DNA of 64,000 nt from an uncultured candidatus Brocadiaceae bacterium (GTDB lineage Bacteria > Planctomycetota > Brocadiia > SM23-32): positions 25,441-89,440 of the forward strand of contig CAZQEQ010000002.1 in NCBI GenBank assembly GCA_964592385.1. Direction: 5' to 3'. A program made the position numbers and the translations under genes. Positions 12,366 to 64,000 of this stretch are shown here, piece by piece (within the stretch, counting starts at the first letter, position 1; each line of letters opens with the position of its first letter). A model generated the notes under the pieces. It saw nothing but the letters and a program-made list of their open reading frames with translations. It was not told the origin of the DNA and did no database searches.

Positions 12366-12826
12366 CCGGTCTCGAAGGAGCTTTTGCCCGCGGGCTCACA
12401 CGGCCAGACTACTGCGTGCGAAGCCCGACCGACCTGCGCGCCTCATTGCACCCGCGCTGCGACCGGTGCTCATCCTCGGAGTCGTGCCCATGCCGGGGAA
12501 CATGAGGACGAGGGTGGTGGCCTTTCGCACCATGCCGCTTCCCGTGGAGGCTGTGCGAACCATGTCATCCCGAGGCGGCGCCTGAAGGGCCGCCGAGGCT
12601 TGCGCGCCGTACGGCGTGGATATCCGTGCGCCGGAAGGGCGCTTTTGTCGCATAATCGAGATTCCCGCCGCAAGGCGGGCAAGCCTCGTCCCGCCTGAGT
12701 GGGACTCGGAATGACGGATTCCCGGCGCGCGTCGCGCTCCCCATGTGCAGGGACGGCTGCTCGCACGGGACGACAGATGAACTGAAACCCGAGTAGGGGC
12801 CAAGGCCCGGCCCCAGGATTCGCACC

Positions 12827-46101: not shown

Positions 46102-47169
46102 TCACGGGCTCTCCGGGGCGCCGGAGGGCATCGGCTGGTGCGTGCGCGTCGGGCCGATCAGCCGCATCCGCCCGTCCTCGTCGAAGACGACTCGGTCTAT
46201 GTTAACGGTACGGTTGCCGGACGGATGCTCTGGGTCGGCGTGGGCGTGATAGACCATGAACACCTCGCGCCCGTCGGGCGAGGTCGTGAAGCTGTTGTGC
46301 CCCGGCCCGGAGACGCCCTTCTCGGGGTCCGTGCGGGCCAGAGGGTTGGAGTCGCTCTTCGTCCACGGCCCCAGGGGCGACTCGGCCGTCGCGTAGCCGA
46401 TGCCGTAACGGGGGCTCGCGTAGTGGGTGGCCGAGTAGGTCATGTAGTAGCGGCCGGCGTGCTTGAGCACGAACGCGCCCTCGTTGCAGCGGACGCGCAC
46501 GCTCTCGGGGTCTTCCCATTCCTGGTCCGCCTCCGCGCAGAGGACGGGCTCGCCGGCCGGCCCCGAGAGGTCTTCCTTCAGGCGCAGACCGTGTATCTTG
46601 CCGTAGATGTAACGTTGCCGCGGCCGCGCAGTTGCGTTCTCGACCACTCCCACCTGGGCGAAGTAGAGATACGGCGTGCCGTCGTCATCGACGAAGACGT
46701 GCGCGTCGATGCATGACCAGCCGATGTCGCACCAGGGCCCGTGGAGGTCCCGGAACGGCCCCGCCGGGTCCTCGCTGACGGCCAGGCAGAGCCGGAACCC
46801 CTCCTCCTTCTCGCGCTGACAACTGAAGCCCATGTAGAAGAGCCCCCGGTAGCGGAAGACCTCCGGCGCCCAAAATGAGCCGGTCCCCCACGAATCCTCC
46901 GCCCGGCGGTAGGCGTAGCCGAGCTCGGTCCAGTGGACCAGGTCCGGCGATCGCCAGCACCTGAACCCGTCCCGCGCCGTCGTCCCGTAAAGGTAGTAAG
47001 CGCCCTCGTGCAGCAGCACGAAGGGGTCGCCCATGCGGATCTCGCCGCCGACGGGATTGGTGTAGGTGTCGCCGGCCACGTCCTGCGTCTCGTAAGCCGC
47101 GTGCGCGGCGGAGCAAGCCGTGGCGACGATCAGCGCCAGCGGCACGAGGAACTGAAGCATCCCCATCAT
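46102..47169 (-). CDS. Glycoside hydrolase family 43 protein
   Basis: It has a signal peptide (MLQFLVPLALIVATACSAAHA). Motifs include NPVGGEIRMGDPFVLLHEGAYYLYGT, FWAPEVFRYRGLFYM, IDAHVFVDDDGTPYLYF and EGAFVLKHAGRYYMTYSA. I prefer the ATG at 47169, preceded by GAGGGAGA; the ORF track start is 47226. Confidence 0.85.
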   Translation of the reverse strand: MMGMLQFLVPLALIVATACSAAHAAYETQDVAGDTYTNPVGGEIRMGDPFVLLHEGAYYLYGTTARDGFRCWRSPDLVHWTELGYAYRRAEDSWGTGSFWAPEVFRYRGLFYMGFSCQREKEEGFRLCLAVSEDPAGPFRDLHGPWCDIGWSCIDAHVFVDDDGTPYLYFAQVGVVENATARPRQRYIYGKIHGLRLKEDLSGPAGEPVLCAEADQEWEDPESVRVRCNEGAFVLKHAGRYYMTYSATHYASPRYGIGYATAESPLGPWTKSDSNPLARTDPEKGVSGPGHNSFTTSPDGREVFMVYHAHADPEHPSGNRTVNIDRVVFDEDGRMRLIGPTRTHQPMPSGAPESP

Positions 47170-47233
47170 TCGGTCTCCCTCTTCTGCCTTGATGTCCTGG
47201 GCACACGAATTGTTCCCTGGCGTCACGCGCAGG

Positions 47234-49006: not shown

Positions 49007-49114
49007 GTTTCCTTTCCTCCGGTAGCGATAACGGTCCGGTGGTCGAGAGACACGGGATACATGCAACTCTGATGCAAATGGCGCAGGAGACCCAAGCTGG
49101 CATACGCCCAGACA

Positions 49115-49348
49115 TCATACCGAAACGGCTGCGTAGCGCAGGACGTCGATCTCGGCGCCGCGCCGCACGGCCTCTTCGGCCAACTCGTGTACCTGCGCGG
49201 TTACGTCATCCGACAGATAGTACTCGCCGCAGTTCTCGCACACCTGCGCGGGGACGTCCTTGATGATGACCGTGGTATCGTCACGCTCAAGGGTTACGGT
49301 CGCCGTCCCTCCGTGCGTGTTGCCCGTCTTGCAGATCGCGCACTTCAT
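49115..49348 (-). CDS. YgiT/MqsA-type zinc-ribbon protein (putative antitoxin, no HTH domain)
   Basis: 77 aa: MKCAICKTG...VTLERDDTTVIIKDVPAQVCENCGEYY. It has two CxxC pairs. The start overlaps the upstream gene's stop (ATGA). Confidence 0.8.
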   Translation of the reverse strand: MKCAICKTGNTHGGTATVTLERDDTTVIIKDVPAQVCENCGEYYLSDDVTAQVHELAEEAVRRGAEIDVLRYAAVSV

Positions 49349-49671
49349 GGTTGTCTCCTGTTTCTGAAATCCTCATCCCAGATCTGGGCATCTGGCTCAT
49401 AGGCCGTGACGACGATGGCAGTCCGTGTTTCCCTATCCACCGCGAGAACGACGTGGACAGGCCGGGACTCAGCGTAACCCAGGAGCAGTCGGCTCGGGTA
49501 AGGAGTGTCGTCGGGATAGTCTGCTATCACCTCGCCGTGGCGGATGACATTCAGCACGTGCTCGCTTGTCAGACCGCGCCGGAACATCCGTCTGACGGCG
49601 TGGCCGCTGAACAGGACTCTGTCGAACTGCCGGTTCCGGCTCGCGCCTGAGCTGGGCTCTTGGTCTGTCAT
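49345..49671 (-). CDS. DUF4258-like protein (putative toxin)
   Basis: This is the 3' 327 nt of the spurious 589-aa ORF 49345-51114, starting at the ATG at 49671. The sequence FSGHAVRRMFRRGLTSEHVLNVIRHGEVIADYPDDTPYPSRLLLGY...VHVVLAVD matches my recollection of DUF4258. Confidence 0.7.
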   Translation of the reverse strand: MTDQEPSSGASRNRQFDRVLFSGHAVRRMFRRGLTSEHVLNVIRHGEVIADYPDDTPYPSRLLLGYAESRPVHVVLAVDRETRTAIVVTAYEPDAQIWDEDFRNRRQP

Positions 49672-49980: not shown

Positions 49981-51921
49981 ATGAGCGTGGACTCCCTGAC
50001 AAGCGGGTCCGGCGCAAGTCCTGGCACGGTGCCGGGTTTGCGGCGCGGGCCCTCGTGGCGTAGCCTCTTGTGGGCGGGCGCGTGCTTTCTGTTCTTCCTG
50101 TTGTTCTTCCTGTACGTCTGGCTGCGCGTTGCTCCCGCGGGTCTCTACCATTGCCGATACATGGAGTTTCCTCCCTTCTCGCTGGGGGCGGTGTTCGTCA
50201 AGGAGTTCCTGGCGTATGCGGGCGGGCCCATCGAGTACGTGTCGGCGTTTCTGTCGCAGTTGTTCTACCTCTCTTGGGCCGGTGCTCTGATCATCACGGC
50301 GGTTGCCGCGCTGCTCTGCGTGGCGGCTTATGCGTCCTTTACGGCCTTTGGCGGCACTCGCCTTCCCGTGCTGTACTTCATTCCGGCCCTGCCGGTGTTG
50401 ATGCTGTACAGCCGGTACTCGCACGCCATGACGCTCGTCCTGGCGGTGTTGGCGTCGGTGCTGTGCATGGTCCTTTATGCGTCCCTGCCGCTGCGTCGTC
50501 CTGTCCTGAGGGCGGGGGCATTCCTGGTGCTCTCGTGCGCCCTCTGGTACGTGGCCAGTGGTGCATACGTGATCTTCGTCGTTCTGTGCGGCGCGCTGGA
50601 GCTTCTGACAAGGCGCCGGGTCCTGCTCGGTCTGGCCTGCGTTCTGCTTTCCCTGGTCGCGCCTCCGGTAGCGGGCACATATCTTCTCCCGATCACGATC
50701 GAAGATGCTTACGTGGGGGGCATGCGTTCGATGATCGGCCCGCACACCGGGGATCTGGCGGCCCTGATTGCCGTGGTCTGCTTGCTGGCCTTCTTTCCGA
50801 TAGTTGGCGTCGGAGTTGCGCTTTGGCACCGGCTGGGAAGGAGGGGGGCGGGCGTGGCTGGCAGTGCGGCGTCGACCCCTGAGCGGCCCAGGCAGCCGGG
50901 ACTCATGCACGTCCTCGTGTCGTCCGCAGTGGTCGCCGCGGGGCTTGTCGTGGTCTATTCCTTTTTTGACAGGGACTTGGGCACGCTCTGTCGAATGGAG
51001 TGTCTCTCGCGACGGGGCACGTGGGAGCGGGTCCTGCGTGAGGCGCGCCGTCTTTCCCCCGCGTGTGCCCGCGGCGAGCTGGCGACATGGAATGTCAACT
51101 GGGCCCTCTATCACACCGGCCGACTACCGTACGAGATGTTCTCTTACCCGCAACATGCTTACTCGCTCATCGGGACCAGCGAATACTACAGGAGATTCAA
51201 TTGGCGCGTGCCGACGTACGGCAAGTGCGCCGACGTGTGTTTCGAACTCGGGCTTGTGAACACGTCGGAACAGATGTCCCACGAGGCACTGTGGGTCGCC
51301 GGGGACTACGGACCGACGCTCTTGCAGCTTGCCCGGATATACATCCTCAAGGGGCAGCCTGAAGCCTCGCGCATGTTCCTGACGGCGGTGAGCAAGGACC
51401 TGGTATACGGATCGGCAGGCAGACGTTACCTGGAGTTGCTCAAGAGCGATCCCGAGCTTTCCACGGACCAGGAGGTGCAACGAGTACGGTCCCTGATGAT
51501 GCACACGGACCTGCCCCATTCGTCCTTTGAGGGCAGGCTGTTGGAGCTGCTGAGAACGAACAGGCAGAACCGGATGGCTTTCGAGTACCTGATGGCGGTC
51601 TACCTGCTGACGGGTCAGATCGAGAAGCTCGCCATGAACATGGAGCGCCTGGACGACTTCGCATACCCCGACGTTCCGCGTCATTACGAGGAAGCGCTCT
51701 TGCTGCACACTGCCATGACGGGCAGGGCGGCTGACCTGGGGGCACGGCGCATCAGCCCGCAGACGATGGCGCGATTTCAGCATGTCAATCGCGTGCTTGC
51801 CGATTGCAGGGGCAACCGGGCGGCAGCCCTGGGTGTCCTTGCCAGGCAGCACGGTGACACCTACTTCTTCTACTATCTGTTGCACTTCGCGTCCGCGCCT
51901 GCCAGGGGGACGAGCGGATGA
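49981..51921 (+). CDS. Polytopic membrane protein (~10 TM helices) with C-terminal TPR-like helical domain, unknown function
   Basis: I prefer the ATG at 49981. The N-terminal ~370 aa are hydrophobic helices. The C-terminal ~270 aa form helical repeats (LLQLARIYILKGQPEASRMFLTAV..., AFEYLMAVYLLTGQIEKL). The family may be DUF6057-like, from memory and unverified. Confidence 0.7.
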   Translation: MSVDSLTSGSGASPGTVPGLRRGPSWRSLLWAGACFLFFLLFFLYVWLRVAPAGLYHCRYMEFPPFSLGAVFVKEFLAYAGGPIEYVSAFLSQLFYLSWAGALIITAVAALLCVAAYASFTAFGGTRLPVLYFIPALPVLMLYSRYSHAMTLVLAVLASVLCMVLYASLPLRRPVLRAGAFLVLSCALWYVASGAYVIFVVLCGALELLTRRRVLLGLACVLLSLVAPPVAGTYLLPITIEDAYVGGMRSMIGPHTGDLAALIAVVCLLAFFPIVGVGVALWHRLGRRGAGVAGSAASTPERPRQPGLMHVLVSSAVVAAGLVVVYSFFDRDLGTLCRMECLSRRGTWERVLREARRLSPACARGELATWNVNWALYHTGRLPYEMFSYPQHAYSLIGTSEYYRRFNWRVPTYGKCADVCFELGLVNTSEQMSHEALWVAGDYGPTLLQLARIYILKGQPEASRMFLTAVSKDLVYGSAGRRYLELLKSDPELSTDQEVQRVRSLMMHTDLPHSSFEGRLLELLRTNRQNRMAFEYLMAVYLLTGQIEKLAMNMERLDDFAYPDVPRHYEEALLLHTAMTGRAADLGARRISPQTMARFQHVNRVLADCRGNRAAALGVLARQHGDTYFFYYLLHFASAPARGTSG

Positions 51922-53504
51922 GCAACCGCGTCAGGACGGTGTTGCTGCTGTGTGCGCTCCTGGCCTTGCTTGCGGGCGGCCTTGTCCTGCACGGGGTTCG
52001 ACCTGAGGCCCCCGCAGTTGCGCAGTGCGAGCGCACGCGCCGGATGCCCAGGATTCGCCCGGACTATGTCGGGACGGTCATCCCTCCGAACATTGCCCCC
52101 CTGAACTTCCTGGTGGAGGAGCCGGGCACGCAGTACTGTGTCAGGATATCCTCCAGGCAGGGCGAGCCGATCGAGATTCTCAGCAAGACGCCTCAGATCG
52201 TGATTCCCGAAGGGCCGTGGAAGATACTGCTGGACCTCAATCGTGGCGAGGAACTGCAGTTTGACGTTCTCGCAAAGGGGGCGGACGGGCAGTGGCGTCG
52301 CTTCGATGCCATAACAAACACGGTCTCCACCGCCCCCATCGACAGCCACCTGGTCTATCGACTTCTCGGAACGGGCTACATCGACATAGCTGACTTGGGC
52401 ATCTACCAGCGGGACGTCGAGGGCTATGCAGAGAACCTCATCTTCCACAACAGGTCCATGGGTGGCGGATGCATCAACTGCCACACGTTTCTCAACGGCG
52501 GAACGTCCGACATGATACTGCACGTCAGGGGCGACCAGTGCGGATTCGCCATGGTGATGGCCCGCGACGGCGACGTCATCAAGGTCGACACGCGGACCGA
52601 GCACAATCCTGCGCCGGCGGCCTACAGTTCCTGGCATCCCAGCGGGCGGGTGGCCGCCTTCTCCGTCAACAAGATAAGGCAGTTCTACCACACGATCGGC
52701 CACACCCGAGAGGTCTACGACGCTGACTCCGACGTGTGCCTCTACCTCGTGGACTCGGCGACCGTGACGAGCACGGCAGCGCTCTCGGACCCCGGGCGCC
52801 GGGAGAACTGGCCAGCGTGGTCGCCGGACGGGGAGTATCTGTACTTCTCCAGCGCGCCCGATCTGCCGCGCGAGCGTTTCGAGGACATCAAGTACGACCT
52901 GATGCGGATCAGCTACGACGTGGAGACCGGCCAGTGGGGCAAACTGGAGACCGTGCTGTCTGCCGGGGAAACGGGACTCAGCATGAACCAGCCAAAAGTC
53001 TCTCCGGACGGCCGGTTCCTGCTGTTCTGCATGTCCGACTACAGCAGCTTCCCCCTTGACCGGGCAAACAGCGATCTGTACATGATGGCGCTGGGAACGC
53101 GCAGGTACTGGCGCCTGGAAATCAACAGCGACAGTAGCGAGGCATGGCATTGCTGGTCGAGTAACGGACGTTGGATCGTCTTCAGCAGCAGGAGGCTTGA
53201 CGGCGTCTTCACGAGGCCGTTCTTCAGCTATATTGATGAGGACGGGAACGCCCACAAGCCGCTGCTGCTTCCCCAGAGGGACCCGGCGTTCTATGACACC
53301 TTCCTCCAGATGTATAACGTCCCGGAACTCGTCAAGGAGCCTGTCCGGGTGAGTGCGCGAGAACTCGGCCGAGCCATAAGCGGGCCTGCGGTGTCGGTCT
53401 CTCCTGCGGCGGTTACCGGCGCCACCCCCCGCGCCAAGGCAAAGGCGAGTCCTGCAACGGCGTCGTCTCCGGACGCCGGTGAGCCTCCGATCCCACGGCA
53501 ATAG
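51918..53504 (+). CDS. Signal-anchored protein with a single CXXCH motif and TolB/PD40-like beta-propeller repeats
   Basis: The start overlaps the upstream stop (ATGA). It has an N-terminal anchor (LLLCALLALLAGGLVL) and the motif GGGCINCHTF (CXXCH). PD40-like repeats include WSPDGEYLYFSS, VSPDGRFLLFCMSD and WSSNGRWIVFSSRR. Confidence 0.7.
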   Translation: MSNRVRTVLLLCALLALLAGGLVLHGVRPEAPAVAQCERTRRMPRIRPDYVGTVIPPNIAPLNFLVEEPGTQYCVRISSRQGEPIEILSKTPQIVIPEGPWKILLDLNRGEELQFDVLAKGADGQWRRFDAITNTVSTAPIDSHLVYRLLGTGYIDIADLGIYQRDVEGYAENLIFHNRSMGGGCINCHTFLNGGTSDMILHVRGDQCGFAMVMARDGDVIKVDTRTEHNPAPAAYSSWHPSGRVAAFSVNKIRQFYHTIGHTREVYDADSDVCLYLVDSATVTSTAALSDPGRRENWPAWSPDGEYLYFSSAPDLPRERFEDIKYDLMRISYDVETGQWGKLETVLSAGETGLSMNQPKVSPDGRFLLFCMSDYSSFPLDRANSDLYMMALGTRRYWRLEINSDSSEAWHCWSSNGRWIVFSSRRLDGVFTRPFFSYIDEDGNAHKPLLLPQRDPAFYDTFLQMYNVPELVKEPVRVSARELGRAISGPAVSVSPAAVTGATPRAKAKASPATASSPDAGEPPIPRQ

Positions 53505-53696: not shown

Positions 53697-55037
53697 ATGA
53701 GGGCGCCGGTGATCGTTCACGTGGATATCGACGCGTTCTTCGCCTCGGTCGAGCGGGTCATTCGGCCCGAGTTGCGGGGCAGGCCGGTGATCGTCGGCGG
53801 CGGGACCGAGGGCAGGGGCGTGGTCGCCTCGGCCTCCTACGAGGCCAGGCCCCGCGGCGTGAGGGCCGGGATGCCCATCTACCAGGCGCGCGAGCTCTGC
53901 CCGGACGGCGTCTTCCTGCCGCCGCGCCACGGGGAGTACAACCGGTTCTCCGAGCGGGTCTTCGACGTGCTCTCGGAGGTCAGCCCGTCGGTGGAGCAGG
54001 CGTCCATGGACGAGGGGTACGCGTCGCTGCGGGGCTGCGAGAGGATGTACGGGGCGTGGTCGGCGCGGCCGGCGGCCAGGCTGCCGTTCGTGCGGGAGGC
54101 GGACGGCATCTACCGGCGCCGGGAGGGGCGAGCGGTGCCGCCGGGGGAGCGGGCAATGCTGCCGGAGGGCTGCCGCTGGCCGGCGGCGGTGGCGCTCTGG
54201 ATCAAGCGGGCCGTGCGGGCGCGCACGGGCCTGACCGTGACGGCCGGGCTGGGCGCGAACAAGCTGGTGGCGAAGGCGGCGTCCGGTTTCGGCAAGCCGG
54301 ACGGGCTGGTCGTGGTGGAGCCGGGCCGGGAGGCGGACTTCCTGGCCATGCTGGGCCTGGGCGACCTGCCGGGCATCGGGCGCGCCACGCTGGAGAAGTT
54401 CCACAAGTGGAACGTGCGCACCGTGGAGCAGGCGCGTCGGCTGCCGGTCGAGCTGCTCGGGGACGCCTTCGGCGAGGAGAACGGGCGGGCGATATACCGC
54501 CTGCTGCGCGGCCAGGGCTCGGCCGAGCCGCAGGAGCGCGGGCGCCCGAAGAGCATCAGCCGCGAGACGACCTTCTGGACGGCGTCCAACGACTACGGGT
54601 TCGTCGAGTCCATGCTGTTCTACCTGACGGAGCGGCTGGGGCGGGCGCTGCGCCGGGAGAGGCTGGAGGGGCGGACGGTGGGGGTGAAGCTGCGCTACCA
54701 GGACTTCCACACGGTACAGCGGTCACGCTCGGTGGGGGGGCACACGGACCGGGACGACCGGATATTCGAGGCGGCGCGGCGCCTGCTGCGGGCGCAGTGG
54801 CGCCGGAGCCGGCGGGTGCGGCTGGTGGGCGTGGGGCTGACGGACCTGCGCCCGGCGCGCGCGTTCCAGTACACGCTCTTCGACGATGGGGCGGAGCGCA
54901 GCCGGCGGCTGGACCGCTGCCTGGACGGCCTGCGGGAGCGGTTCGGGTTCGGCGCGGTGCGGCGCGGGCTCTCGATCGACCTGGCCGAGGTCGAGGAGCG
55001 GGCGGAGCCCGTCTCGCCGGCGCACGCGCATTCGTGA
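53697..55037 (+). CDS. dinB: DNA polymerase IV (Y-family)
   Basis: Motifs VIVHVDIDAFFASVE, SMDEGYASL and AGLGANKLVAKAAS. I prefer the ATG at 53697. Confidence 0.9.
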   Translation: MRAPVIVHVDIDAFFASVERVIRPELRGRPVIVGGGTEGRGVVASASYEARPRGVRAGMPIYQARELCPDGVFLPPRHGEYNRFSERVFDVLSEVSPSVEQASMDEGYASLRGCERMYGAWSARPAARLPFVREADGIYRRREGRAVPPGERAMLPEGCRWPAAVALWIKRAVRARTGLTVTAGLGANKLVAKAASGFGKPDGLVVVEPGREADFLAMLGLGDLPGIGRATLEKFHKWNVRTVEQARRLPVELLGDAFGEENGRAIYRLLRGQGSAEPQERGRPKSISRETTFWTASNDYGFVESMLFYLTERLGRALRRERLEGRTVGVKLRYQDFHTVQRSRSVGGHTDRDDRIFEAARRLLRAQWRRSRRVRLVGVGLTDLRPARAFQYTLFDDGAERSRRLDRCLDGLRERFGFGAVRRGLSIDLAEVEERAEPVSPAHAHS

Positions 55038-55081
55038 CTCAAGTGGCTCAGGTGCCCCCGCCTGAGAGGGCCCGCGGCCGC

Positions 55082-55110
55082 TTTGACCTTCCTTGACGCG
55101 CCGGATAGAA
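55082..55110 (+). promoter_or_regulatory. Sigma70-like promoter TTGACC-N17-TAGAAT
   Basis: TTGACC is at 55082-55087 and TAGAAT at 55105-55110, 49 nt upstream of the ATG at 55159. Confidence 0.5.
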
Positions 55111-55158
55111 TCGGGCCGGTGCTATCGTCCGGTTCCATTCCCGGGGAGTGTTCGTCGA

Positions 55159-57114
55159 ATGCCGCCGCATCCTGAAGCAGACGAACGCGCGCCTGGAACG
55201 CTGGCGACGCCGAGGAGCGTGCTGCTGGGCTGCGTCCTGTGTGGCCTGATCGGCCTGGCCGGGCCGTACTGGTGCTTCTACCTGATGTCCTCGACGATGT
55301 TCGCCGACTACCACACGGCGGGGGCGACGTTCTCTCTGCTCCTGCTGATCGTGGTGTTCAACCTGGGTCTGGCGCGCGCCTGGCCCCGGTCGGGCCTGCG
55401 GGGAGGGGAACTCCGGCTCATCACGGCGATGACGCTGACGAGCGGGTCCATAGCCACCTCGGGCCTGATAGCGTATCTGGTGCCCGGGATGACGGCGCCG
55501 TATTACCACGCCAACGAGACGAACCTGATGCACACGCGGCTCTGGCCGCACCTGCCGAAGTGGCTGTTCGCGCTGGATCCGGACGGGGGGACGGTGGCGA
55601 TACGAAAGTTCTGGCTCGGGCTGCCTGCGGGCGAGCCGATCCCGTGGGGTCCGTGGATACGGCCGCTGACGTGCTGGGGGATATTCGTCCTGGCCATGTT
55701 CGCGTGCATGCTCGCCGTGATGACGATCATGCGCAAGCAGTGGATGGATCACGAGCACCTGAGCTACCCCATAGCGCAGGTGCCGGCCGAGCTGTGCCGG
55801 GTCGCCGAGCGTGGGGGAGCGAGCGGCTCGATCCTGCGCAGCCGGGCCTTTTGGATCGGGGGCGGGATAGCGTTCCTGCTGGCCAGTTCCGCGGGGCTGC
55901 GGCATTACTTCGGTTTCTTCCCGGCGTTCAACGTCAGCCACAGGGTGACCGGCCTCGGGCCGATGGACCTGCCGGTCAACCTGCGGCCCGTGGTGCTGGG
56001 ACTGGTGTTCCTCATCCCGAACCGTGTGGCGTTCAGTGTCTGGTTCCTGGCGCTGGTCTCCTGGGTGCTGCGCTCGTTCCTGCGGGCCTACAACCTGGGG
56101 CTCAACGAGTGGATGCTCTACGGCGTGGTGGGGCACCCGGAGCTTCAGCACATGGCGATGGGGTCGATGATTGCGTTCACGGCGGGCAGCCTTTGGGTGG
56201 CGCGGCGTCACCTGCGACGTGTGGTTCTCTGCGCGCTGGGCCGGCAGGAGGGCTATGACGCCGGCGAGCCGGCCTCTTACCGCAGCTCGCTGCTCGTGCT
56301 CGCCGCCGGTGGTGTCGTGGCGCTGGTGTGGTTTCGTCTTGTGGGATTCCAGTTTTTCTTCGGTGCGATACTGCTGTTGCTGACGTTCGTCGTCTATTAC
56401 GCCATGGCGCGGGTGATCGCGCAGTGCGGGCTTCCGGCGATCAACTCGCCCGTCGTGCCGAGCCCGTACATGGCGAGCGCGTTCGGCACGAGCCTGCTGG
56501 GGCGGGAGCAGGTCATCGGGCTGGGGACGCACCTGAGCTGGCACGCGGACCTGCGCAACTCCCCGCTGTCCGGCGCCGGCCATGGGATGTACCTGACGGG
56601 GCGGCGTTCCGGCGGACTGCTGTGGCTGCTGTTGGTCGGGCTGGTCATCACGTACGTGGCGGGGACGCTTTTCACCGTTCGCCTGGGCTATCGGCAGGGC
56701 GCAAGCGGCATGCACCCCTGGTATGTCAACAACTCGTCCAACCTGACCTGGTACTGGACCTCCGCCATGTCGCAGGCCGATCGCGATCCCAGCTGCGCGG
56801 GTATGGCGTGGATGGGCAGCGGGGCGGTCGTCATGGCGGCCCTGATGGTGGCGCAGAGGCTGCTCTTCTGGTGGCCGATCCACCCGGTGGGTTTCCTCAC
56901 CAGCGGGGCATACCTGGTGACGGCGTTCTGGTTCTCGATCTTTCTTGCGTGGTTCATCAAGGTGCTGGTGACCTACTTCGGGGGCGGGAGCGCCTACAGG
57001 GCGGGGCGACGTTTCTTCATCGGGCTGGTGCTGGGCTACTTCGTCGCCGGCGGCATCTGGGCGATTATCGACACCTGCGCCCGTTCAGTCGGCAACGCCG
57101 TCTTCGTGCTCTGA
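55159..57114 (+). CDS. Uncharacterised polytopic membrane protein, paralogue 1 of 3
   Basis: 651 aa with about 13-14 hydrophobic helices. It shares ordered motifs with the next two genes (GPYW, ADYHT.GA, DPDGG, GEPIPWGPW, MRKQWMDHEHLSYPIAQVPAEL, FWWPIHPVGFL). RBS GGGGAG lies upstream. Confidence 0.8.
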   Translation: MPPHPEADERAPGTLATPRSVLLGCVLCGLIGLAGPYWCFYLMSSTMFADYHTAGATFSLLLLIVVFNLGLARAWPRSGLRGGELRLITAMTLTSGSIATSGLIAYLVPGMTAPYYHANETNLMHTRLWPHLPKWLFALDPDGGTVAIRKFWLGLPAGEPIPWGPWIRPLTCWGIFVLAMFACMLAVMTIMRKQWMDHEHLSYPIAQVPAELCRVAERGGASGSILRSRAFWIGGGIAFLLASSAGLRHYFGFFPAFNVSHRVTGLGPMDLPVNLRPVVLGLVFLIPNRVAFSVWFLALVSWVLRSFLRAYNLGLNEWMLYGVVGHPELQHMAMGSMIAFTAGSLWVARRHLRRVVLCALGRQEGYDAGEPASYRSSLLVLAAGGVVALVWFRLVGFQFFFGAILLLLTFVVYYAMARVIAQCGLPAINSPVVPSPYMASAFGTSLLGREQVIGLGTHLSWHADLRNSPLSGAGHGMYLTGRRSGGLLWLLLVGLVITYVAGTLFTVRLGYRQGASGMHPWYVNNSSNLTWYWTSAMSQADRDPSCAGMAWMGSGAVVMAALMVAQRLLFWWPIHPVGFLTSGAYLVTAFWFSIFLAWFIKVLVTYFGGGSAYRAGRRFFIGLVLGYFVAGGIWAIIDTCARSVGNAVFVL

Positions 57115-57172
57115 CGGACCTGCCCGCCCGGCGTGGCGCTCGTCCCCTTCCCGGGCCCGTCCGGGGTATCAT

Positions 57173-57201
57173 TTGTCGTCTTCGGCGCAGTCCGGTATAA
57201 A
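57173..57201 (+). promoter_or_regulatory. Sigma70-like promoter TTGTCG-N17-TATAAA
   Basis: TTGTCG is at 57173-57178 and TATAAA at 57196-57201, 45 nt upstream of the GTG at 57246. Confidence 0.4.
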
Positions 57202-57245
57202 CGCCCGGCGTCGTGTGAGTACCGAACGGCTGGTGGGAGGAGAGC

Positions 57246-59195
57246 GTGGGCGACGGCATGGCTGAAAGCACCTGGGGGCCTCGGCGCTGGGTCAGCCTTC
57301 GCAGCGTCGTGCTGGGCGCCGTCATGAGCGTGGTGGTCGGGCTGCAGGGGCCTTACTGGACCATCTACCTGCAGACCTCCCGTATGTACGCCGACTACCA
57401 CACGGGCGGCGCGGCGTTCTGGTTGTTCATGCTCATACCGTTTTTCCTGCTGTTCAATCTGGCCGTCGGGCGTGGCAGCCGGCTGGCGTGGCGGGCCGAG
57501 GAACTCACGGTCGTGACGGCCATGATGTTCATCAGCGGGTCCATAGTCAGCTCCGGGCTGATCGGCCACTGGCTGCCGAGCATCAGCGCCGCCTGCTACC
57601 ACGCCACCAGCGGCAACCAATGGCGTGAGCTCGTGTGGGACAACTTGAGGCCGTGGATGCGCCCGATCGATCCAGACGGGGGGAACGTCGCCGTCACGCA
57701 GTTCTGGGAAGGGCTGCCGCCGGGTGAGCCTATTCCCTGGGGGCCGTGGGTGCGGCCGCTGGTCGCCTGGGGCGTTCTGTTGCTGGGGCTCTTCGCGTGC
57801 ATGACGGCGATCATGGCCATCATGCGCAAGCAGTGGGTGGATCACGAGCACCTGAGCTTCCCGATCGCGCAGGTGCCGGCCGAGCTGTGCGCGGGAGCGG
57901 TCAATCCTCTGCGCGAGTCCTCGATCTTCCGCAGCAAGGCGTTCTGGGTCGGCCTGGGGATGGCGTTCCTGGTGGCCAGCATGGGCGGGGTGAGCTTCTA
58001 CGCCTTCGGCAAGCCGTTCTACTTCCGCATCCGCCAGACGGTCACTGGACTGGGCCCTCTTGGGTTGCGGGTCAACACCAGCTTAGTGGTCATCGGCCTG
58101 GCGTTCCTGATACCGAACCGCATCGCCTTCAGCGTGGTGGCGCTGTCGCTCATGTCATGGGGCACCAAGTCCTTTATGCGCGCGTATAACCTTGGCATGC
58201 GGGGCGGCGACGGCTCCGTGGAGCTGGGATTCCTCACGATGGGGGCGATGGTGATGTTCGTGCTGGCCAGCGTCTGGCTGGGGCGGCGGCACCTGCGCCG
58301 CGTGCTGCGCTGCGGCCTGGGAACGGGCGATCGAGACTACGACGCCGAGGAGCCGTGCAGCTACCGGTCGGCGCTGCTGACGATGCTGGCCGGGATGGCG
58401 GTCTTCGTGGGCTGGCTGGTGGCGGCCGGGCTGGGGCTGGGGTACGCGCTCTGTGTGTTGGCGGCGTTCCTGGTGATCTACTATGGCATGGCGCGGGTGA
58501 TCGCGCAGTGCGGCCTGCCGTCGGCGACGCCGCCGGTGATCCCGGCCAGGTTCGTGGGCGACCTGTTCGGGGTCGAGAACCTGGGCACGCGGCAGGTGGC
58601 CCTGCTGGGCTCCCAGGTCTGGCACGCGGACATGCGAAACGGTGCCATGTCCGGCGCGGCCCACAGCATGTACCTGGTGCAGAGGCGCCGGTCGGGACTG
58701 TTCTGGGCGCTGTTGCTCGCGCTGGTCGTCACTTACGTTACGGCCTGCTACTGCACGGTTTGGATCAGCTACCGGCACGGGGCACTGAACATGGACCCCT
58801 GGTTCTTCATGACTTCCTCGCGCATTCCCTGGTGGTGGGTTTCGGGGACCCTGGGGCGGCAGGAGGGCTTCAGCCTGCTCGGCCTGTCGTGGACCGTGTT
58901 CGGCGGGCTCATCATGGGCGCACTGATCCTGGCTCAGCGATCTTTCTTCTGGTGGCCGATCCACCCGGTGGCGTTCCTGATCTGCAACAGCCACATGGTG
59001 TACAACCTCTGGTTCTCGGTGTTTCTGGCGTGGCTGGCGAAGGTGCTGGTGGTCAACTTCGGCGGCCACAGGGCTTACCGCAGCGGGCGCCGGTTCTGCA
59101 TCGGCATGGTGATGGGCTACTTCCTGGGGGGCGGCCTCTGGGGCATCGTGGACACGGTGACCGGCAAGGTCGGCAACGCGGTGTTCTACCTCTGA
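57246..59195 (+). CDS. Uncharacterised polytopic membrane protein, paralogue 2 of 3
   Basis: It aligns over its full length with paralogues 1 and 3. The start is the GTG at 57246 (after GGGAGGAGAG) or the ATG at 57258. Confidence 0.8.
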   Translation: MGDGMAESTWGPRRWVSLRSVVLGAVMSVVVGLQGPYWTIYLQTSRMYADYHTGGAAFWLFMLIPFFLLFNLAVGRGSRLAWRAEELTVVTAMMFISGSIVSSGLIGHWLPSISAACYHATSGNQWRELVWDNLRPWMRPIDPDGGNVAVTQFWEGLPPGEPIPWGPWVRPLVAWGVLLLGLFACMTAIMAIMRKQWVDHEHLSFPIAQVPAELCAGAVNPLRESSIFRSKAFWVGLGMAFLVASMGGVSFYAFGKPFYFRIRQTVTGLGPLGLRVNTSLVVIGLAFLIPNRIAFSVVALSLMSWGTKSFMRAYNLGMRGGDGSVELGFLTMGAMVMFVLASVWLGRRHLRRVLRCGLGTGDRDYDAEEPCSYRSALLTMLAGMAVFVGWLVAAGLGLGYALCVLAAFLVIYYGMARVIAQCGLPSATPPVIPARFVGDLFGVENLGTRQVALLGSQVWHADMRNGAMSGAAHSMYLVQRRRSGLFWALLLALVVTYVTACYCTVWISYRHGALNMDPWFFMTSSRIPWWWVSGTLGRQEGFSLLGLSWTVFGGLIMGALILAQRSFFWWPIHPVAFLICNSHMVYNLWFSVFLAWLAKVLVVNFGGHRAYRSGRRFCIGMVMGYFLGGGLWGIVDTVTGKVGNAVFYL

Positions 59196-59333
59196 CGGGA
59201 GAGACCCGCCCGCACTGGCGCACTCGCCTTCCACGTTGTAGCCTATTGGCCCGACTGGTCACGGTGCACAAGGAGTTGACCGAGATTGGCAGAGGGACAG
59301 GACAGCCTCAGGGCTGCTGAAGCAAGGGGCTTC

Positions 59334-61250
59334 ATGAGCGCCCGCGCACTGGCGCTGGGGTGCGTGATGTGCCTCGTCACGGGCGTGGCGGGGCCCTATT
59401 GGACCATCTACCTTCAGTCCTCCCGCATGTACGCCGACTACCACACGGGGGGCGCGTCGTTCTTCCTGCTGGGCCTGCTGGTGATCTTCAACTTTGGTCT
59501 GGGCCGCCTCTGGAAGTCCGCCGCCCTCCGCGCGGAGGAGTTGATGGTCGTCGGCGCCATGATGCTGGTCGGCGGCTCCATTGTCTCTTCCGGCCTGATC
59601 GCCTATTTCATCCCGACCATCACGGCGCCGTATTACTTCGCCAATCCGTCCAACCAGTGGAACGTGGTCCTGTGGGAGCACCTTCCCAGATGGCTGTCTC
59701 CGCTGGACCCGGACGGCGGAACGTTCGCGATCCACAAGTTCTGGGTCGGCCTGCCTTCGGGCGAGCCCATTCCCTGGGGGCCCTGGGTGAAGCCCCTTGC
59801 CCTTTGGGGCGTGTTCCTGATGGCCTTCTTCGCCTGCATGATGGCCTTGATGACGCTGATGCGCAAGCAGTGGGTGGACCACGAGCACCTGAGCTTCCCG
59901 ATCGCACAGGTGCCCGCCGAGCTGTGCGCAGCGGCCGACCCCGGGGGCGAGACCGTGCTGCGTCGGAAGGCATTCTGGATAGGCATGGGCCTCACGTTCC
60001 TGGTCGCCAGCCTGAGTGCCGTGAGCCATTACGTGGCTGACGAGCCCATCTTCCTGCGCGTGCGGCAGTGGGTCGGGACGGAGCCGTGGCGCCTGCCCAT
60101 CTACCTCGACCTCGTGGTCGTGGGGCTGGTCTTCCTGATCCCGAACCGCGTCGCGTTCACCGTCTGGTTCGTGGCCCTGGCCTCGTGGGTGGTGCGCTCG
60201 TTCCTGGAGGCTTACAACCTGACCCTTACGCAGGGAGCGATATACGGCGGCGAGATGAACCATGTGGCAGGCGGGGCGACTTTCGTGTTTGTTGTCAGCA
60301 GCCTCTGGCTCTCGCGGGACCACCTGAAGAGGGCCTGGCGCTGCGCCCTGGGCACGGGTGAGGAGGGCTACGACGCCGGTGAGCCGTCGTCCTACCGGCT
60401 GGCGTTCTTCGTGATCGTGCTGGGCCTGGTTGTGGCGGTGGGCTGGCTTCGGATTGTCGGGCTGCACCTGACGTACGGCGTCATCCTGATCCTGGTGACA
60501 CTGGCCGTTTACTATGCCATGGCGCGCGTGGTGGCGCAGTGCGGCCTGCCGGCCATCAGCCCGCCCATGTACCCGAACATGTTCGTCGCCAGCATCTTCG
60601 GCAGCGAGAACCTGGGGGCCAATCAGGTAACCGTCATGGGCATGCACTACGGGTGGCATTTCGACATGCGCAACTCGCCCATGTCAGGCGCAGCGCACGG
60701 GATGTACCTGACGCGCCGGCGCCGCAACGGCCTGTTCTGGGCGATGCTGCTCGGGCTGATCATTGCCTACGTGGCGGCGGCCGCCACTACGGTGCGGGTC
60801 TGCTACCGCCACGGCGGCCTGAACATGGACCCGTGGTTCTTCAGCACCTTCCCCCAGTACACGGCCTGGCGGTGGGCGCAGTACACCATAACCCAGCATC
60901 AGGGGCCCAGCTTCGTTCGGATGCTCTGGGCGGGCGGCGGAGCCGGCCTGATGACGCTGCTTGTCTGGGCGCAACGCTCCTTCTTCTGGTGGCCGCTGCA
61001 CCCGGTGGGGCTGCTCATCTGCTCCAGCCACATGGTGTACTTCTTCTGGGCCTCCGTCTTCACGGCGTGGCTCGTCAAGTTCTTCGCAGTGAAGATCGGC
61101 GGCTACGGGGCGTACCGGGTGGGCAGGCGCTTCTGCATCGGCATGGTGCTGGGCTACTTCGTCGCAGGTGGGCTCTGGGCGATCGTGGACACGGTCATCA
61201 CGTTGTTCACGACGACTACGATCCAGGGCAACGCGGTTTTCTACATATGA
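59334..61250 (+). CDS. Uncharacterised polytopic membrane protein, paralogue 3 of 3
   Basis: It aligns over its full length with paralogues 1 and 2. I prefer the ATG at 59334 after AAGGGG; the ORF track's TTG at 59286 is possible. Confidence 0.8.
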   Translation: MSARALALGCVMCLVTGVAGPYWTIYLQSSRMYADYHTGGASFFLLGLLVIFNFGLGRLWKSAALRAEELMVVGAMMLVGGSIVSSGLIAYFIPTITAPYYFANPSNQWNVVLWEHLPRWLSPLDPDGGTFAIHKFWVGLPSGEPIPWGPWVKPLALWGVFLMAFFACMMALMTLMRKQWVDHEHLSFPIAQVPAELCAAADPGGETVLRRKAFWIGMGLTFLVASLSAVSHYVADEPIFLRVRQWVGTEPWRLPIYLDLVVVGLVFLIPNRVAFTVWFVALASWVVRSFLEAYNLTLTQGAIYGGEMNHVAGGATFVFVVSSLWLSRDHLKRAWRCALGTGEEGYDAGEPSSYRLAFFVIVLGLVVAVGWLRIVGLHLTYGVILILVTLAVYYAMARVVAQCGLPAISPPMYPNMFVASIFGSENLGANQVTVMGMHYGWHFDMRNSPMSGAAHGMYLTRRRRNGLFWAMLLGLIIAYVAAAATTVRVCYRHGGLNMDPWFFSTFPQYTAWRWAQYTITQHQGPSFVRMLWAGGGAGLMTLLVWAQRSFFWWPLHPVGLLICSSHMVYFFWASVFTAWLVKFFAVKIGGYGAYRVGRRFCIGMVLGYFVAGGLWAIVDTVITLFTTTTIQGNAVFYI

Positions 61251-61330
61251 GCCTCCCCGTTTTGCTCGACCCGCGGCGCCGGGCCTGATATCATGGGGCG
61301 CGGTCAGCTTTGTCCCTAAGAGTACATGCC

Positions 61331-62329
61331 ATGAAACCGTGGTCCACATTGGCGCTGGTTCTGGGGCTGACGGGGGCATCCCTGGCGGCCGGCGCCGTCC
61401 GGGAAGAGGCCCTCGTTCGGGTCAACGACCACGTTGTCACCCGGGCAGAACTGGAGCAGCACATCCGCATGGCCCAGCCCGAGGTGCCGAAGCACTCCTT
61501 GGAAGCTCCGCCACTGGGCTACGAACGGCTGGAGACGGAGATGAAGAAACGCGCCCTTCGCGCGTTGGTCCGCAGGCGCGTGCTGCTCGACGCAGCCCGG
61601 GAACAATACGTCATGGACGAGCAGTACGAGGTGGTTCTGGACGCCTTCGCGGAGGAGCAACTCCGCAAGTTCGAGGCCCGAATCGGCTCCAGACTCAAGG
61701 CGCGCGTGAAGTTGTCCGAGATGGGCCTGACCGCCGCGCAGTACAGGAAGCTGCAGGTGGACAACGCACTCGTCTCGCAGCTGCTGTGGGAGAAGGTTTA
61801 CTCCGACATCAGCATTGCCCCCGCTGAGGTGCGGCAATACTATGTGGCACACCGGGACGAGTTCCAGGTCCCCGCGGTTCTGGCATATCGCCAGATACTG
61901 TTCGCCGTCGTGGAACCGGCGGATGTGCCGCAGATGCAGACCAGGGCGGCGGCGGTACTGAGAGAAATCGAGGGCGGTGCGGGCTTTGCCCTGATGGCCG
62001 ACCGCTACTCGGCCGACCGCGACGCTTACCCCGGCGGCCTCCACGAGGTCAAGCTGCCGGAGGACAACCTGGACTGGCGCCCCCAGGCCGTGGAGGGACT
62101 TGAGGTCGGCCAGATCTCCGCCGTGAGACAGGTGACGGGCGGGTACGCCATCGTCAAGTTCGAGCGCCTGACGTCCGGCCGCGTCCTTACCTTCACGGAG
62201 GCCCAGGCGCGGATAGAGCAGGACTTGCTCGCCCGCAGGCGGATGGACGCTGAGGAGGCATACGCCGAGCGGCTGGAAGGCAAGGCCCTGGTCGATTACT
62301 ATCCCGCCGCGAAGGACCTCGGGCTTTGA
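61331..62329 (+). CDS. SurA/PrsA-like parvulin-type peptidyl-prolyl isomerase
   Basis: It has a signal peptide (LALVLGLTGASLAAGA) and a SurA-N-like helical region. The parvulin domain is recognisable (YRQILFAV...GAGFALMADRYSAD...GGLHEV...GQISAVRQVTGGYAIVKFE). Confidence 0.75.
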   Translation: MKPWSTLALVLGLTGASLAAGAVREEALVRVNDHVVTRAELEQHIRMAQPEVPKHSLEAPPLGYERLETEMKKRALRALVRRRVLLDAAREQYVMDEQYEVVLDAFAEEQLRKFEARIGSRLKARVKLSEMGLTAAQYRKLQVDNALVSQLLWEKVYSDISIAPAEVRQYYVAHRDEFQVPAVLAYRQILFAVVEPADVPQMQTRAAAVLREIEGGAGFALMADRYSADRDAYPGGLHEVKLPEDNLDWRPQAVEGLEVGQISAVRQVTGGYAIVKFERLTSGRVLTFTEAQARIEQDLLARRRMDAEEAYAERLEGKALVDYYPAAKDLGL

Positions 62330-62390: not shown

Positions 62391-64000
62391 CTATCCGGTC
62401 GTCCCCCTGATGCGCCGGCCTATCCGGGCGCTGATAGTCCCCAAGGCCAGCAGCACCGCCGCGCCCGCCACTGTCAGGAGCCCGGCCAGGAGGAACGGCG
62501 CGTAGTTGTCCTCGGCGACTATCTTCAGTCCCGCCACCCCCAGCACGACCGCCAGCAGCACCACGAAGCTGGCGACGGGCGACAGGCCGCTCTTGTGCCA
62601 GATGAGCGCGCAGAGCCCGAAGACGACGAGCACTATCAAGCCCATCAGCAGTTGGGCCGCCGAACCTGCCGCGCACCTTGCGTTGACGTGGGCCGGGACG
62701 TCGGGGTTCAGGATCAGCCCCTGGAAGTAGAACTGCTCCGGCAGGTGCGGCTTGGTCCCGGCGAACACAGGCGCCTCCCGGACGCCCTTCCCGCTGACGC
62801 GGCCGGTGAGGACCTCCGCGTTGGACATCCACTGTGGGTTCCTGGCCGCCTGGCCGCCAGCGACCTGGGTTTCCCATTGTTGCTCGCCCGGCGTGGCAGT
62901 GGGCTGAAGGTCGCGGATGGACGACTCAAAGTAGCGCTCGTTGCGCAGTCGTTCCAGCGTGCCCGATGAACTGATGACCCGGTATCCGCGCGGCAGTTGC
63001 AGCACCCAGCCGAGCCGCAGCACGCGCACGCCGCGGAACGAGGGCATGGTCAGGCCGACCGAGGTCAGCTTGCCCAGTTCCTCGACGCCCAGTTCCTCCC
63101 ACTGGACTTCGACCTTAACGGGGCCCTGGACGCCTTGCACCTGGGCGATGGGTATCTTGGTCACTTCGCCGTCGGACGTTTCCTCGACCAGCGGCCGCAC
63201 GCGCCGCCCGTTGACCAGGGCGTGCCAGAGCTTGGCGTTCTCCGGAAGCCGGACCTCCAGGAACGGCTGGTAGCGGCTGCGAATGCTGGCGATCAGGCTC
63301 GTGATGCGGTTGCCCTCCCGCGTCAGCGTCGTGTCCAGCTTGCACGTCTCGATGACGGCCGTCACGACGTCCGCCTCGTCGTGACGCACCGAGCTGAGCG
63401 CGAGCAGGTAGGGATGGGCCATGTAGCGGAACGCGAACAGGATGGGCACGGTCTCCCGGCCGATCTGCGCTGCGACCGACGGCGGGAGCTGCCGGAACTG
63501 CACGGGGATCTCCTCCTCGTCTATCGGCGTCAGGTGCTTCAGCTCGTCGGGCAGCGGCGCCAGCTCGAGCGACGGGTCTCCCGTGACGGCCACGTAGCCG
63601 ATCTCGCGCTCCACCTCGTCCATCACCCCGATGACCACGGGGCCCTCGAACTGCCTCTGCTGCTCCTCCGGCGTAAGGTCCATGCTGTACTCGAAGATGA
63701 GTTGATACTGCCCCTTCACCTCGCTCTGGAGCTCGACGCGCCACAGCTCTCCGGCTTCCTCGTCCGCGTCGGGCTCCTCGACCTTCTCCTGGATCTTGAT
63801 GTTCTCGCCGCGGATGTTGGGCTTGGTGACCCCAGCCGGCAGCCGGACCAGGAACTCCTTGACGCCGGCGTACTGCACGGTGAACTCGACCGTGGACGCG
63901 CCCATCAGGTAGTCCTCGCCCAGCCGCACGTAGTTGAAGGTCCGCACGAGCACCTTCGGCGAGATGCTGGTCACCTCGACGTCGAGCTGCCAGGGGGACT
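62391..64000 (-). CDS. Large protein with C-terminal membrane anchor helices, 5'-truncated by the window edge
   Basis: The frame stays open upstream of the listed GTG at 63974 all the way to position 64000. The body is beta-rich and the C-terminus has 3 TM helices (LLMGLIVLVVFGLCALIW, VASFVVLLAVVLGVAGL, FLLAGLLTVAGAAVLLAL). I recognise no family. Confidence 0.6.
   Translation of the reverse strand, partial: SPWQLDVEVTSISPKVLVRTFNYVRLGEDYLMGASTVEFTVQYAGVKEFLVRLPAGVTKPNIRGENIKIQEKVEEPDADEEAGELWRVELQSEVKGQYQLIFEYSMDLTPEEQQRQFEGPVVIGVMDEVEREIGYVAVTGDPSLELAPLPDELKHLTPIDEEEIPVQFRQLPPSVAAQIGRETVPILFAFRYMAHPYLLALSSVRHDEADVVTAVIETCKLDTTLTREGNRITSLIASIRSRYQPFLEVRLPENAKLWHALVNGRRVRPLVEETSDGEVTKIPIAQVQGVQGPVKVEVQWEELGVEELGKLTSVGLTMPSFRGVRVLRLGWVLQLPRGYRVISSSGTLERLRNERYFESSIRDLQPTATPGEQQWETQVAGGQAARNPQWMSNAEVLTGRVSGKGVREAPVFAGTKPHLPEQFYFQGLILNPDVPAHVNARCAAGSAAQLLMGLIVLVVFGLCALIWHKSGLSPVASFVVLLAVVLGVAGLKIVAEDNYAPFLLAGLLTVAGAAVLLALGTISARIGRRIRGTTG

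Follow-up and report, generated by a model that had tools for sequence, protein, structure and literature searches.

In a 64,000-nucleotide stretch of DNA from an uncultured candidatus Brocadiaceae bacterium (contig CAZQEQ010000002.1, positions 25,441 to 89,440; hereafter the window), three consecutive genes encode paralogous membrane proteins of the Pfam family DUF6785/DUF6784 (copies 1-3; Table 1). Judging from a structure model of copy 3, we are confident that this family has the fold of the Yellow Stripe 1 (YS1)/OPT transporters, known from plants as carriers of iron chelates and oligopeptides, a relationship missed by sequence methods. For the locus as a whole, the explanation that we favour, and consider fairly probable, is that the three genes are ancient, separately retained paralogues whose products would act as autonomous, elevator-type secondary transporters with the YS1/OPT fold.

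Structure prediction and the match to YS1

The AlphaFold2 model of copy 3, built on a 70-sequence alignment, had a predicted local distance difference test score (pLDDT) of 94.8 and a predicted template modelling score of 0.94. Searching PDB with this model by Foldseek returned two entries of barley YS1 (HvYS1), 7wst_A (E = 7.5e-9) and 7wsr_A (E = 9.3e-9), both with a probability of 1.00. The match covered the full length of the protein (∼700 aligned columns), with template modelling scores (TM-scores) of 0.64-0.70 at a sequence identity of 13-14%. HvYS1 was the sole significant PDB fold: the next match had an E-value of 0.012 and a TM-score of 0.08, LeuT, MFS, ABC and similar structures all had E-values above 0.01, and no match other than YS1 exceeded a TM-score of 0.17. 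The HvYS1 structure was released in November 2022, after the training cut-off of AlphaFold2; thus, the model is no copy of that entry.

For calibration, we used a genuine OPT protein encoded on a Pseudomonas plasmid (PF03169, E = 2.8e-111), for which 19 relatives were aligned (alignment A3). Its model was weaker (pLDDT 61) and served only for helix order and as a lower-bound calibrator; its sole match was again 7wsr_A (E = 3.4e-14), with TM-scores of 0.53-0.58. This implies that the DUF6785 model is no less similar to YS1 than is this weaker model of a genuine OPT protein. Retrieval of full-length YSL proteins by means of a signature peptide was also tried, and gave only exon-sized PF03169 fragments.

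The first-pass annotation of this DNA, made from the letters and translations, had suggested a new permease family, and had held that a confident match to a characterised transporter family would remove the novelty. Since the model matches the YS1/OPT fold, the novelty is reduced as far as the fold is concerned, while a permease is still the most likely function.

Anatomy of the copy 3 model

HvYS1 (PDB 7wsr/7wst; OPT superfamily, PF03169, TC 2.A.67) is described as having two hairpins of helices linked by extended loops (TM1-H1 and TM8-H6, where TM denotes a transmembrane helix), a discontinuous TM2, near-horizontal arm helices and a C-terminal strand that forms the dimer interface, together with proton-driven, elevator-like uptake (PMC9691689). 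The copy 3 model is alike in size (∼640-680 aa) and shows helical hairpins, discontinuous helices, an arm helix and a C-terminal strand in matching order. Its membrane helices number about 14-15, including the two discontinuous ones, rather than the 13-14 counted before. The first hairpin (helix 3-27, loop, helix 37-59) holds the motifs GPYW..YL and ADYHT.GA and is followed by the first broken helix (67-84/88-101), whose break is rich in Gly and Ser. A long helix (149-183) ends in MRKQW and leads through the loop EHLSF into a short helix (189-199, PIAQVPAELC). The second hairpin, which with its extended loop spans residues 379-422 (379-403/414-422), carries YYAMARV.AQCGLP; the second broken helix (429-442/449-460) carries H.D[ML]RN...SGA.H.MYL. 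At the break of this TM9-equivalent helix, D444 is present in 58 of 70 family members and R446 in 65 of 70. The conserved tail GNAVF[YV][LI] (more generally GN.VF.[IL]) was modelled as the final strand, to which residue 636 belongs.

The model also differs from the known transporters. It contains a beta-hairpin (residues 243-258) that YS1 lacks, and, unlike OPT proteins, a Pro/Trp-rich loop between the second and third transmembrane elements. This loop had been noticed in the first reading and given a length of ∼65 aa; it does exist, but in the model it measures ∼47 aa (residues 102-148), and the corresponding connection in the OPT calibrator model has ∼4 residues, so that the loop is an insertion relative to OPT. 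Loops rich in Lys and Arg (57-66, 176-178, 209-212, 328-339, 461-464 and 594-599) would be cytoplasmic by the positive-inside rule, which would place the Pro/Trp-rich loop in the periplasm. The Cys250-Cys671 disulfide of YS1, its proton-site aspartates and its substrate residues have no mapped counterpart in the copy 3 model.

The inserted loop bears on one alternative, namely that these proteins are membrane-embedded enzymes (GT-C-like glycosyltransferases, polymerases or ligases) in which the loop serves as a catalytic or binding module. Its motif DPDGG...FW.GLP.GEPIPWGPW is conserved and absent from OPT, and the family is annotated only as a DUF. On the other hand, neither GT-C nor any other enzyme fold rose above the noise in the Foldseek search, and conservation is strongest in the intramembrane hairpins and helix breaks, as is typical of transporter cores. 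We therefore regard an enzymatic role as very unlikely.

Membership in an uncharacterised Pfam family

The three proteins are 51%, 55% and 56% identical in pairwise comparisons over their full length (MAFFT), which is far above chance and far above the ∼25% below which, according to the first-pass annotation, the claim of paralogy would be undermined. All the motifs that it had described as shared, from GPYW..YL to the C-terminal GNAVF, were found in the listed order in each of the three copies. Their lengths (651, 649 and 638 aa) and products agree with public gene calls made on identical contigs from metagenomes. In every copy, DUF6785 (PF20581) was matched over the whole profile (positions 1-498 of 498; 290-337 bits, cut-off 25) and was followed towards the C-terminus by DUF6784 (PF20580; 78-90 bits, cut-off 26.4), so that the assignment suggested in the first-pass annotation is now confirmed by Pfam search. 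Relatives were collected mostly from metagenome-assembled genomes (MAGs) of Planctomycetota, and all of the 70 that were aligned (alignment A2) also match DUF6785/DUF6784. Copies 1-3 are thus typical full-length members that show no family-level difference, that is, ordinary members of a known, functionally uncharacterised Pfam family.

Searches for other signatures were negative. No further Pfam family was matched by copies 1-3 at E ≤ 0.01, in agreement with the earlier statement that ABC, MFS and RND signatures are absent, and Pfam signatures of MFS, APC/LeuT, ABC, RND and GT-C were found neither in the three copies nor in the 70 relatives. There was no NCBIfam match for copies 1-3 at E ≤ 1 and no related PDB sequence at E ≤ 10 with profiles of either 3 or 70 sequences, and a literature search found no paper mentioning DUF6785 or DUF6784.

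The family is large. A profile search gave 7,462 clusters at 50% identity (E ≤ 1e-3), and a scan of one genome per species gave 545 confirmed relatives; the phyla represented include Planctomycetota, Latescibacterota, Poribacteria, Omnitrophota, Zixibacteria, Desantisbacteria, Armatimonadota, Gemmatimonadota and Bacteroidota. A large family without function or literature (∼7,500 clusters, spread over many poorly studied phyla) gains a testable hypothesis, that of a YS1/OPT-fold elevator transporter, and a fold so far represented by one solved plant protein is extended to a bacterial group that is invisible to OPT surveys based on hidden Markov models. Among unusually long members, one of 2,120 aa (P0296) has an N-terminal MacB_PCD plus FtsX-type permease module fused on, and others have insertions of ∼200 aa without Pfam match between the DUF6785 and DUF6784 parts. 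Such long members were considered as Rosetta-stone clues to function, and the single informative case, the MacB_PCD-FtsX fusion, was too little to use.

History of the triplication

In a neighbour-joining tree, copies 1, 2 and 3 fell into three separate clades (c1, c2 and c3), each containing the same-position gene of two retrieved loci, L001 and L004. Clade c1 comprises copy 1, L001_5926, L004_5732 and L005_7733; clade c2 comprises copy 2, L001_7986 and L004_7913; and clade c3 comprises copy 3, the same-position genes of L001 and L004 and the single-copy loci L006-L011 and L013. Genes at other places in these MAGs form two further paralogue clades. The orthologues from other MAGs of Planctomycetota are 64-71% identical, compared with 51-56% for the paralogues. 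Since each copy groups with its same-position orthologues, the triplication is ancient; it has been variably retained and is neither recent nor driven by conversion. The tandem retention of ancient paralogues is in itself ordinary.

The slot occupied by the copies, between genes for DinB and a SurA-like peptidyl-prolyl isomerase (PPIase), is conserved among related genomes. Three copies are present there in the window as well as in L001 and L004; L005 and L014 have two; and L010, L011 and L013 have one, which always belongs to clade c3. In L001, L004, L006, L007, L010, L011, L012 and L013, the gene of clade c3 is directly followed by a PPIase homologue on the same strand, and DinB is probably a synteny marker without functional link. 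Elsewhere in the family, there is nearly always one copy within 20 kb. In a Brocadiaceae-labelled MAG (L016), a second DUF6785 copy is split into two overlapping open reading frames (ORFs; 12035-13162 and 13129-14022, both +) that match profile positions 6-366 and 358-653, which would be either a frameshifted pseudogene or an assembly error.

These copy numbers bear on the suggestion, also raised in the first reading, of a heteromeric membrane complex, in which copies 1-3 would be subunits of one hetero-oligomer, for example heterodimers joined through the C-terminal strand, and a joint need for all three would maintain the array. The order c1-c2-c3 is indeed shared by the window with L001 and L004, and thus by at least three genomes; the C-terminal motif that is modelled as a strand is conserved; and homodimers of HvYS1 are held together by the C-terminal strand (PMC9691689). 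However, one to three copies in one and the same slot, and mostly single genes elsewhere, argue against an obligate hetero-complex and for autonomous paralogues. Among the retrieved loci there are genomes with c3 only and no c1 or c2 orthologue, and members in other phyla are nearly always single. In addition, each copy has its own Shine-Dalgarno (SD)-like sequence and a spacer of about 130 nt, and the authors of the HvYS1 structure state that elevator transporters are active without the need for oligomerisation (PMC9691689). We consider such a complex unlikely, and prefer separately acting paralogues.

Eleven positions are invariant within each of the three clades and differ between clades. 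The inferred core domain, with 38% of all columns, contains 8 of these 11 (binomial P about 0.02), and several of the positions adjoin conserved core motifs. This gives mild support to a diverged specificity of the copies.

A conserved 69-nt block

The first-pass annotation had pointed out a nearly identical DNA block of ∼75 nt encoding MRKQW...AELC and had offered strong constraint or gene conversion as its cause. The block is real and is 69 nt long (Table 1): it is 90-96% identical between the copies at the DNA level, compared with 62-65% for the whole genes. In the model, it runs from the cytoplasmic end of the third transmembrane helix through a loop into a short helix whose first residue is Pro. 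Strong constraint on this loop is borne out by the 70 family members, in which W180, L186, P189 and Q192 are invariant.

Under the gene conversion alternative, the array would be a recent local amplification that has been partly homogenised. Besides the contrast between block and whole genes, this could draw on the codons of the block, of which 16-20 are identical versus 14-15 expected from codon usage (P = 0.005, 0.20 and 0.012), although these P values are uncorrected for the choice of the most conserved window. However, the fraction of identical residues encoded by differing codons in the block is as low between genomes (0.29 for orthologues and 0.26 for non-orthologues) as between paralogues within a genome (0.22), compared with about 0.40 outside the block; between copy 2 of the window and the c1 gene of L004, for instance, only 2 of 21 block codons differ. 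The block consists mostly of Met, Trp, Lys, Gln, His, Glu, Asp, Phe/Tyr and Cys codons, which are 1- or 2-fold degenerate and subject to a strong bias towards GC at third positions, and the GC-rich gene set has one dominant codon for each of these residues. Moreover, the paralogues are each nearer to orthologues elsewhere than to one another. Therefore, the near-identity of the block is explained by amino-acid invariance, with codon bias adding to it, and gene conversion is not needed; we regard homogenisation of a recent array as extremely improbable.

Proposed function and gene neighbourhoods

By analogy with YS1, each copy is most likely an autonomous solute transporter of the cytoplasmic membrane, secondary-active and of the elevator type. 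The predicted fold would comprise two domains, a transport core and a scaffold; to our knowledge, this core-plus-scaffold arrangement is known so far only from YS1/OPT transporters. The elevator principle proposed here, which the HvYS1 authors also propose for YS1, is that of other elevator-type secondary transporters (GltPh/EAAT, NhaA and CitS): the transport domain, a rigid unit containing helical hairpins and broken helices, moves along an oligomerising scaffold. The fold of these other transporters is unrelated to that of the DUF6785 model, and NhaA-like structures appeared only as noise matches (TM-score ∼0.1). By the same analogy, the proteins would probably be proton-coupled importers, and they would probably form dimers held by the conserved C-terminal strand. 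The three copies share the core motifs and differ at a few clade-specific core positions, which would fit related but non-identical substrates.

With regard to substrates, the cargo of OPT-superfamily members described in the papers found includes iron-phytosiderophore complexes, glutathione, metal complexes, folates and peptidoglycan fragments. This variety implies that cargo diversity within the fold is normal. To look for clues in the DUF6785 family, we examined tightly linked, same-strand neighbours that were picked by linkage alone. Elsewhere in the family, these include GH38 alpha-mannosidase, GH20, a GH42-like protein, two DUF4838 proteins, a heparinase II/III-like lyase, galactose-binding and type IX secretion system proteins, sulfatases, Gfo/Idh/MocA oxidoreductases, PfkB kinase, transaldolase, G6PD and a Zn-dependent dehydrogenase, as well as genes for amidase, M20 peptidase, PhyH, ETF and UvrD. 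These neighbours suggest a cargo other than the metal chelates and peptides of YS1/OPT, and as a whole they lean modestly towards sugar and glycan catabolism. If this lean is true, the family could help explain how degradation products pass the inner membrane in Planctomycetota and related heterotrophs. In Latescibacterota and Gemmatimonadota loci, a conserved ∼495-aa protein without Pfam match is encoded on the same strand immediately downstream of the DUF6785 gene (L074:11903-13381, L080:11903-13390, L071:11892-13424, L075:11969-13462, L076:11892-13493 and L055:11992-13494), and may be a lineage-specific partner.

A broader proposal would be that DUF6785/DUF6784 is an unrecognised, sequence-orphan branch of the YS1/OPT fold that was put to a new use in phyla that degrade glycans (Planctomycetota, Latescibacterota, Poribacteria, Omnitrophota and others) as a cytoplasmic-membrane importer of glycan breakdown products or other non-peptide organics, with the tandem arrays providing a set of specificities or mixed dimers through the C-terminal strand. 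We put this forward as a speculative idea that is possible but doubtful.

Evidence weighing against a YS1/OPT-type transporter

Several observations weigh against the interpretation of these proteins as YS1/OPT-type importers. PF03169 was matched neither by copies 1-3 at E ≤ 0.01 nor by the 70 relatives at E ≤ 10. Alignment of A2 with A3 (19 bacterial OPT sequences) by hhalign gave a probability of 1.1% and an E-value of 0.046, although the low diversity of A3 (effective number of sequences ∼2.2) limited the power of this test; only 46 columns were aligned, in the last, C-terminal hairpin and at equivalent positions. Homology of the family with OPT is thus no more than plausible, and convergence on the same fold is another possibility. 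The correspondence of motifs and of proton and substrate residues between DUF6785 and YS1 follows helix order only. In HvYS1, the acidic residues that bind protons lie on TM8 and TM9 (Asp446, Asp490 and Asp494), and by eye the TM9 motif D[ML]RN resembles the YS1/OPT proton-site motif D[LF]KT of the D490/D494 segment; this likeness was not recovered by a profile test and was rejected. Transport direction and ion coupling are assigned purely by analogy. As for the substrate, no clue is provided by the flanks of the triplet in the window, be it by the directly adjacent DinB and PPIase or by the DUF6057, PD40, GH43 and GH172-like DUF2961 proteins further upstream. The lean towards carbohydrates is modest: some 9 of 36 adjacent proteins are carbohydrate-related, compared with about 2-3 of 36 distal ones (the latter among the best 25 families listed), in a comparison de-replicated to 23 locus groups. 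A strong carbohydrate link seen in the first, hand-sampled neighbours was weakened to this lean by the de-replicated comparison, and no substrate is named.

One region allowed a closer comparison with OPT. The OPT signature IPLRQVLVVDYKLVYPSGTATA maps to HvYS1 residues 184-205, between TM2 and TM4 at the junction of TM3 and the arm (the numbering was checked by recovery of K482, D490, Q493 and D494). As a pattern, this signature reads PLR[RKQ]V[ML]VV..L.YP[SE]G.A.A. By helix order, the MRKQW block, which is the most conserved one of DUF6785 and has the pattern MRKQWVD.EHLSFPIAQVP.EL, occupies the same slot between TM3 and the arm helix, and the two are similar in pattern (R-[RK]-x-[MW]-V-x4-L-[PST]-[YF]-P). 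When a sub-profile of the block was compared with the OPT profile, its best match, which was not significant, was exactly the signature (residues 124-137, MRKQWVDHEHLSFP versus LRRVMVVQSELPYP; P = 0.43), which is consistent with the fold match but no proof of it. In the YS1-type fold, core and scaffold are each built of inverted repeats; in the DUF6785 family, an internal inverted repeat was not detectable at the sequence level by hhalign of half-profiles, a result that is uninformative for the fold, and a 2026 OPT-wide phylogeny does not cover DUF6785-type relatives.

The direction of transport is also the point at which an alternative enters, namely that the proteins, with the YS1 fold, do not import nutrients and work as exporters or flippases, for instance for an envelope precursor, a peptide or a metallophore. 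Direction is not fixed by the fold alone. The conserved partner downstream is a SurA-like chaperone/PPIase of the periplasm, and the genes upstream encode a polytopic DUF6057 protein and a propeller protein with PD40. In addition, one family member carries a fused permease module of the MacB/FtsX type, which often serves in export. On the other hand, this fusion is a single case, the PPIase link is limited to one Planctomycetota clade, and the family neighbours are mostly catabolic enzymes and not biosynthetic clusters. The OPT-superfamily members described in the papers found, such as HvYS1 and transporters of folate and peptidoglycan fragments, are uptake systems, and we know of no characterised member of the superfamily that is not. 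Export is thus a quite unlikely role, and import by separately acting paralogues is preferred.

Expression signals and other features of the window

The coordinates of the genes and signals are given in Table 1.

Table 1. Genes, conserved blocks and candidate signals of the DUF6785/DUF6784 locus (window coordinates)
Feature	Position	Strand	Description	Evidence or remark
Copy 1	55159-57114	+	651 aa DUF6785+DUF6784 membrane protein, clade c1	Pfam E 1.4e-89 (DUF6785), 9.7e-26 (DUF6784)
Copy 2	57246-59195	+	649 aa DUF6785+DUF6784 membrane protein, clade c2	Pfam E 2.1e-86 (DUF6785), 3.9e-24 (DUF6784)
Copy 3	59334-61250	+	638 aa DUF6785+DUF6784 membrane protein, clade c3	Pfam E 1.6e-100 (DUF6785), 8.2e-22 (DUF6784)
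Conserved block, copy 1	55729-55797	+	69 nt encoding MRKQWMDHEHLSYPIAQVPAELC	
Conserved block, copy 2	57822-57890	+	69 nt	
Conserved block, copy 3	59859-59927	+	69 nt, residues 176-198	
DinB/DNA polymerase IV	53697-55037	+	Upstream in 11 loci	Pfam IMS, IMS_C, IMS_HHH; start per public call
SurA-like periplasmic PPIase	61310-62329	+	Conserved downstream neighbour	Pfam SurA_N_3 + rotamase; signal-peptide-like N-terminus
Sigma-70-like promoter match, upstream of copy 1	55083-55111	+	TTGACC-17-TAGAAT, 10/12	Consensus match; Planctomycetota promoters poorly defined
GC-rich hairpin with weak T tail, copy 1-copy 2 spacer	57149-57166	+		Significance doubtful

Promoter-like hexamers had been described for both copies 1 and 2. 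The site upstream of copy 1 passed our scan, but the one upstream of copy 2 (TTGTCG-17-TATAAA, 57174-57202) failed its criteria, and no passing site was found before copies 2 and 3; a 9/12 promoter-like site precedes the PPIase gene. Terminator-like sites were no more common than in shuffled sequences (5 found versus 5.5 expected). Copy 1 has the SD-like sequence GGGGAG ∼10 nt before its ATG, and copy 2 has GGAGGAG before a GTG start. A riboswitch or other RNA element that might hint at a ligand was searched for in 54900-61400, with no Rfam match at E ≤ 1.

Further upstream of the triplet, just before DinB, the gene of a DUF6057 polytopic protein (49981-51921, +) overlaps that of a PD40/Tricorn-like beta-propeller protein (51918-53504, +) by 4 nt, which suggests translational coupling. 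At a distance of 8-10 kb upstream, a DUF2961/GH172-like protein (44855-46009, -) is encoded beside a GH43 glycoside hydrolase (46102-47226, -). Convergent with the PPIase gene, a 527-aa ORF (62391-63974, -) has no Pfam match and has hydrophobic C-terminal helices, and a relative of it is present in L007, L008 and L010.

Other features of the window lie apart from the triplet. A gene for an OLD-family ATPase/TOPRIM nuclease (47234-49066, -; AAA_15, AAA_21 and OLD-like TOPRIM) and a small gene pair next to it (49115-49348 and 49345-49671, both -; coordinates converted from L082) may form a defence or toxin-antitoxin islet. In the public gene calls for an identical contig, the members of the pair are an MqsA/YokU-like antitoxin and a DUF4258 protein. 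The Acido-Lenti-1 RNA motif (RF01687; cut-off 37 bits) was matched at 5229-5274 (-), 5399-5445 (+) and 8783-8828 (+), with 46.6, 39 and 50.9 bits, respectively; two of these matches form a divergent pair ∼125 nt apart. Finally, a 1,442-aa ORF (35973-40301, -) occupies the stretch of lowest GC content in the window (0.60 versus about 0.68 elsewhere), which has a negative GC skew and is possibly foreign DNA or a gene for a repetitive surface protein.

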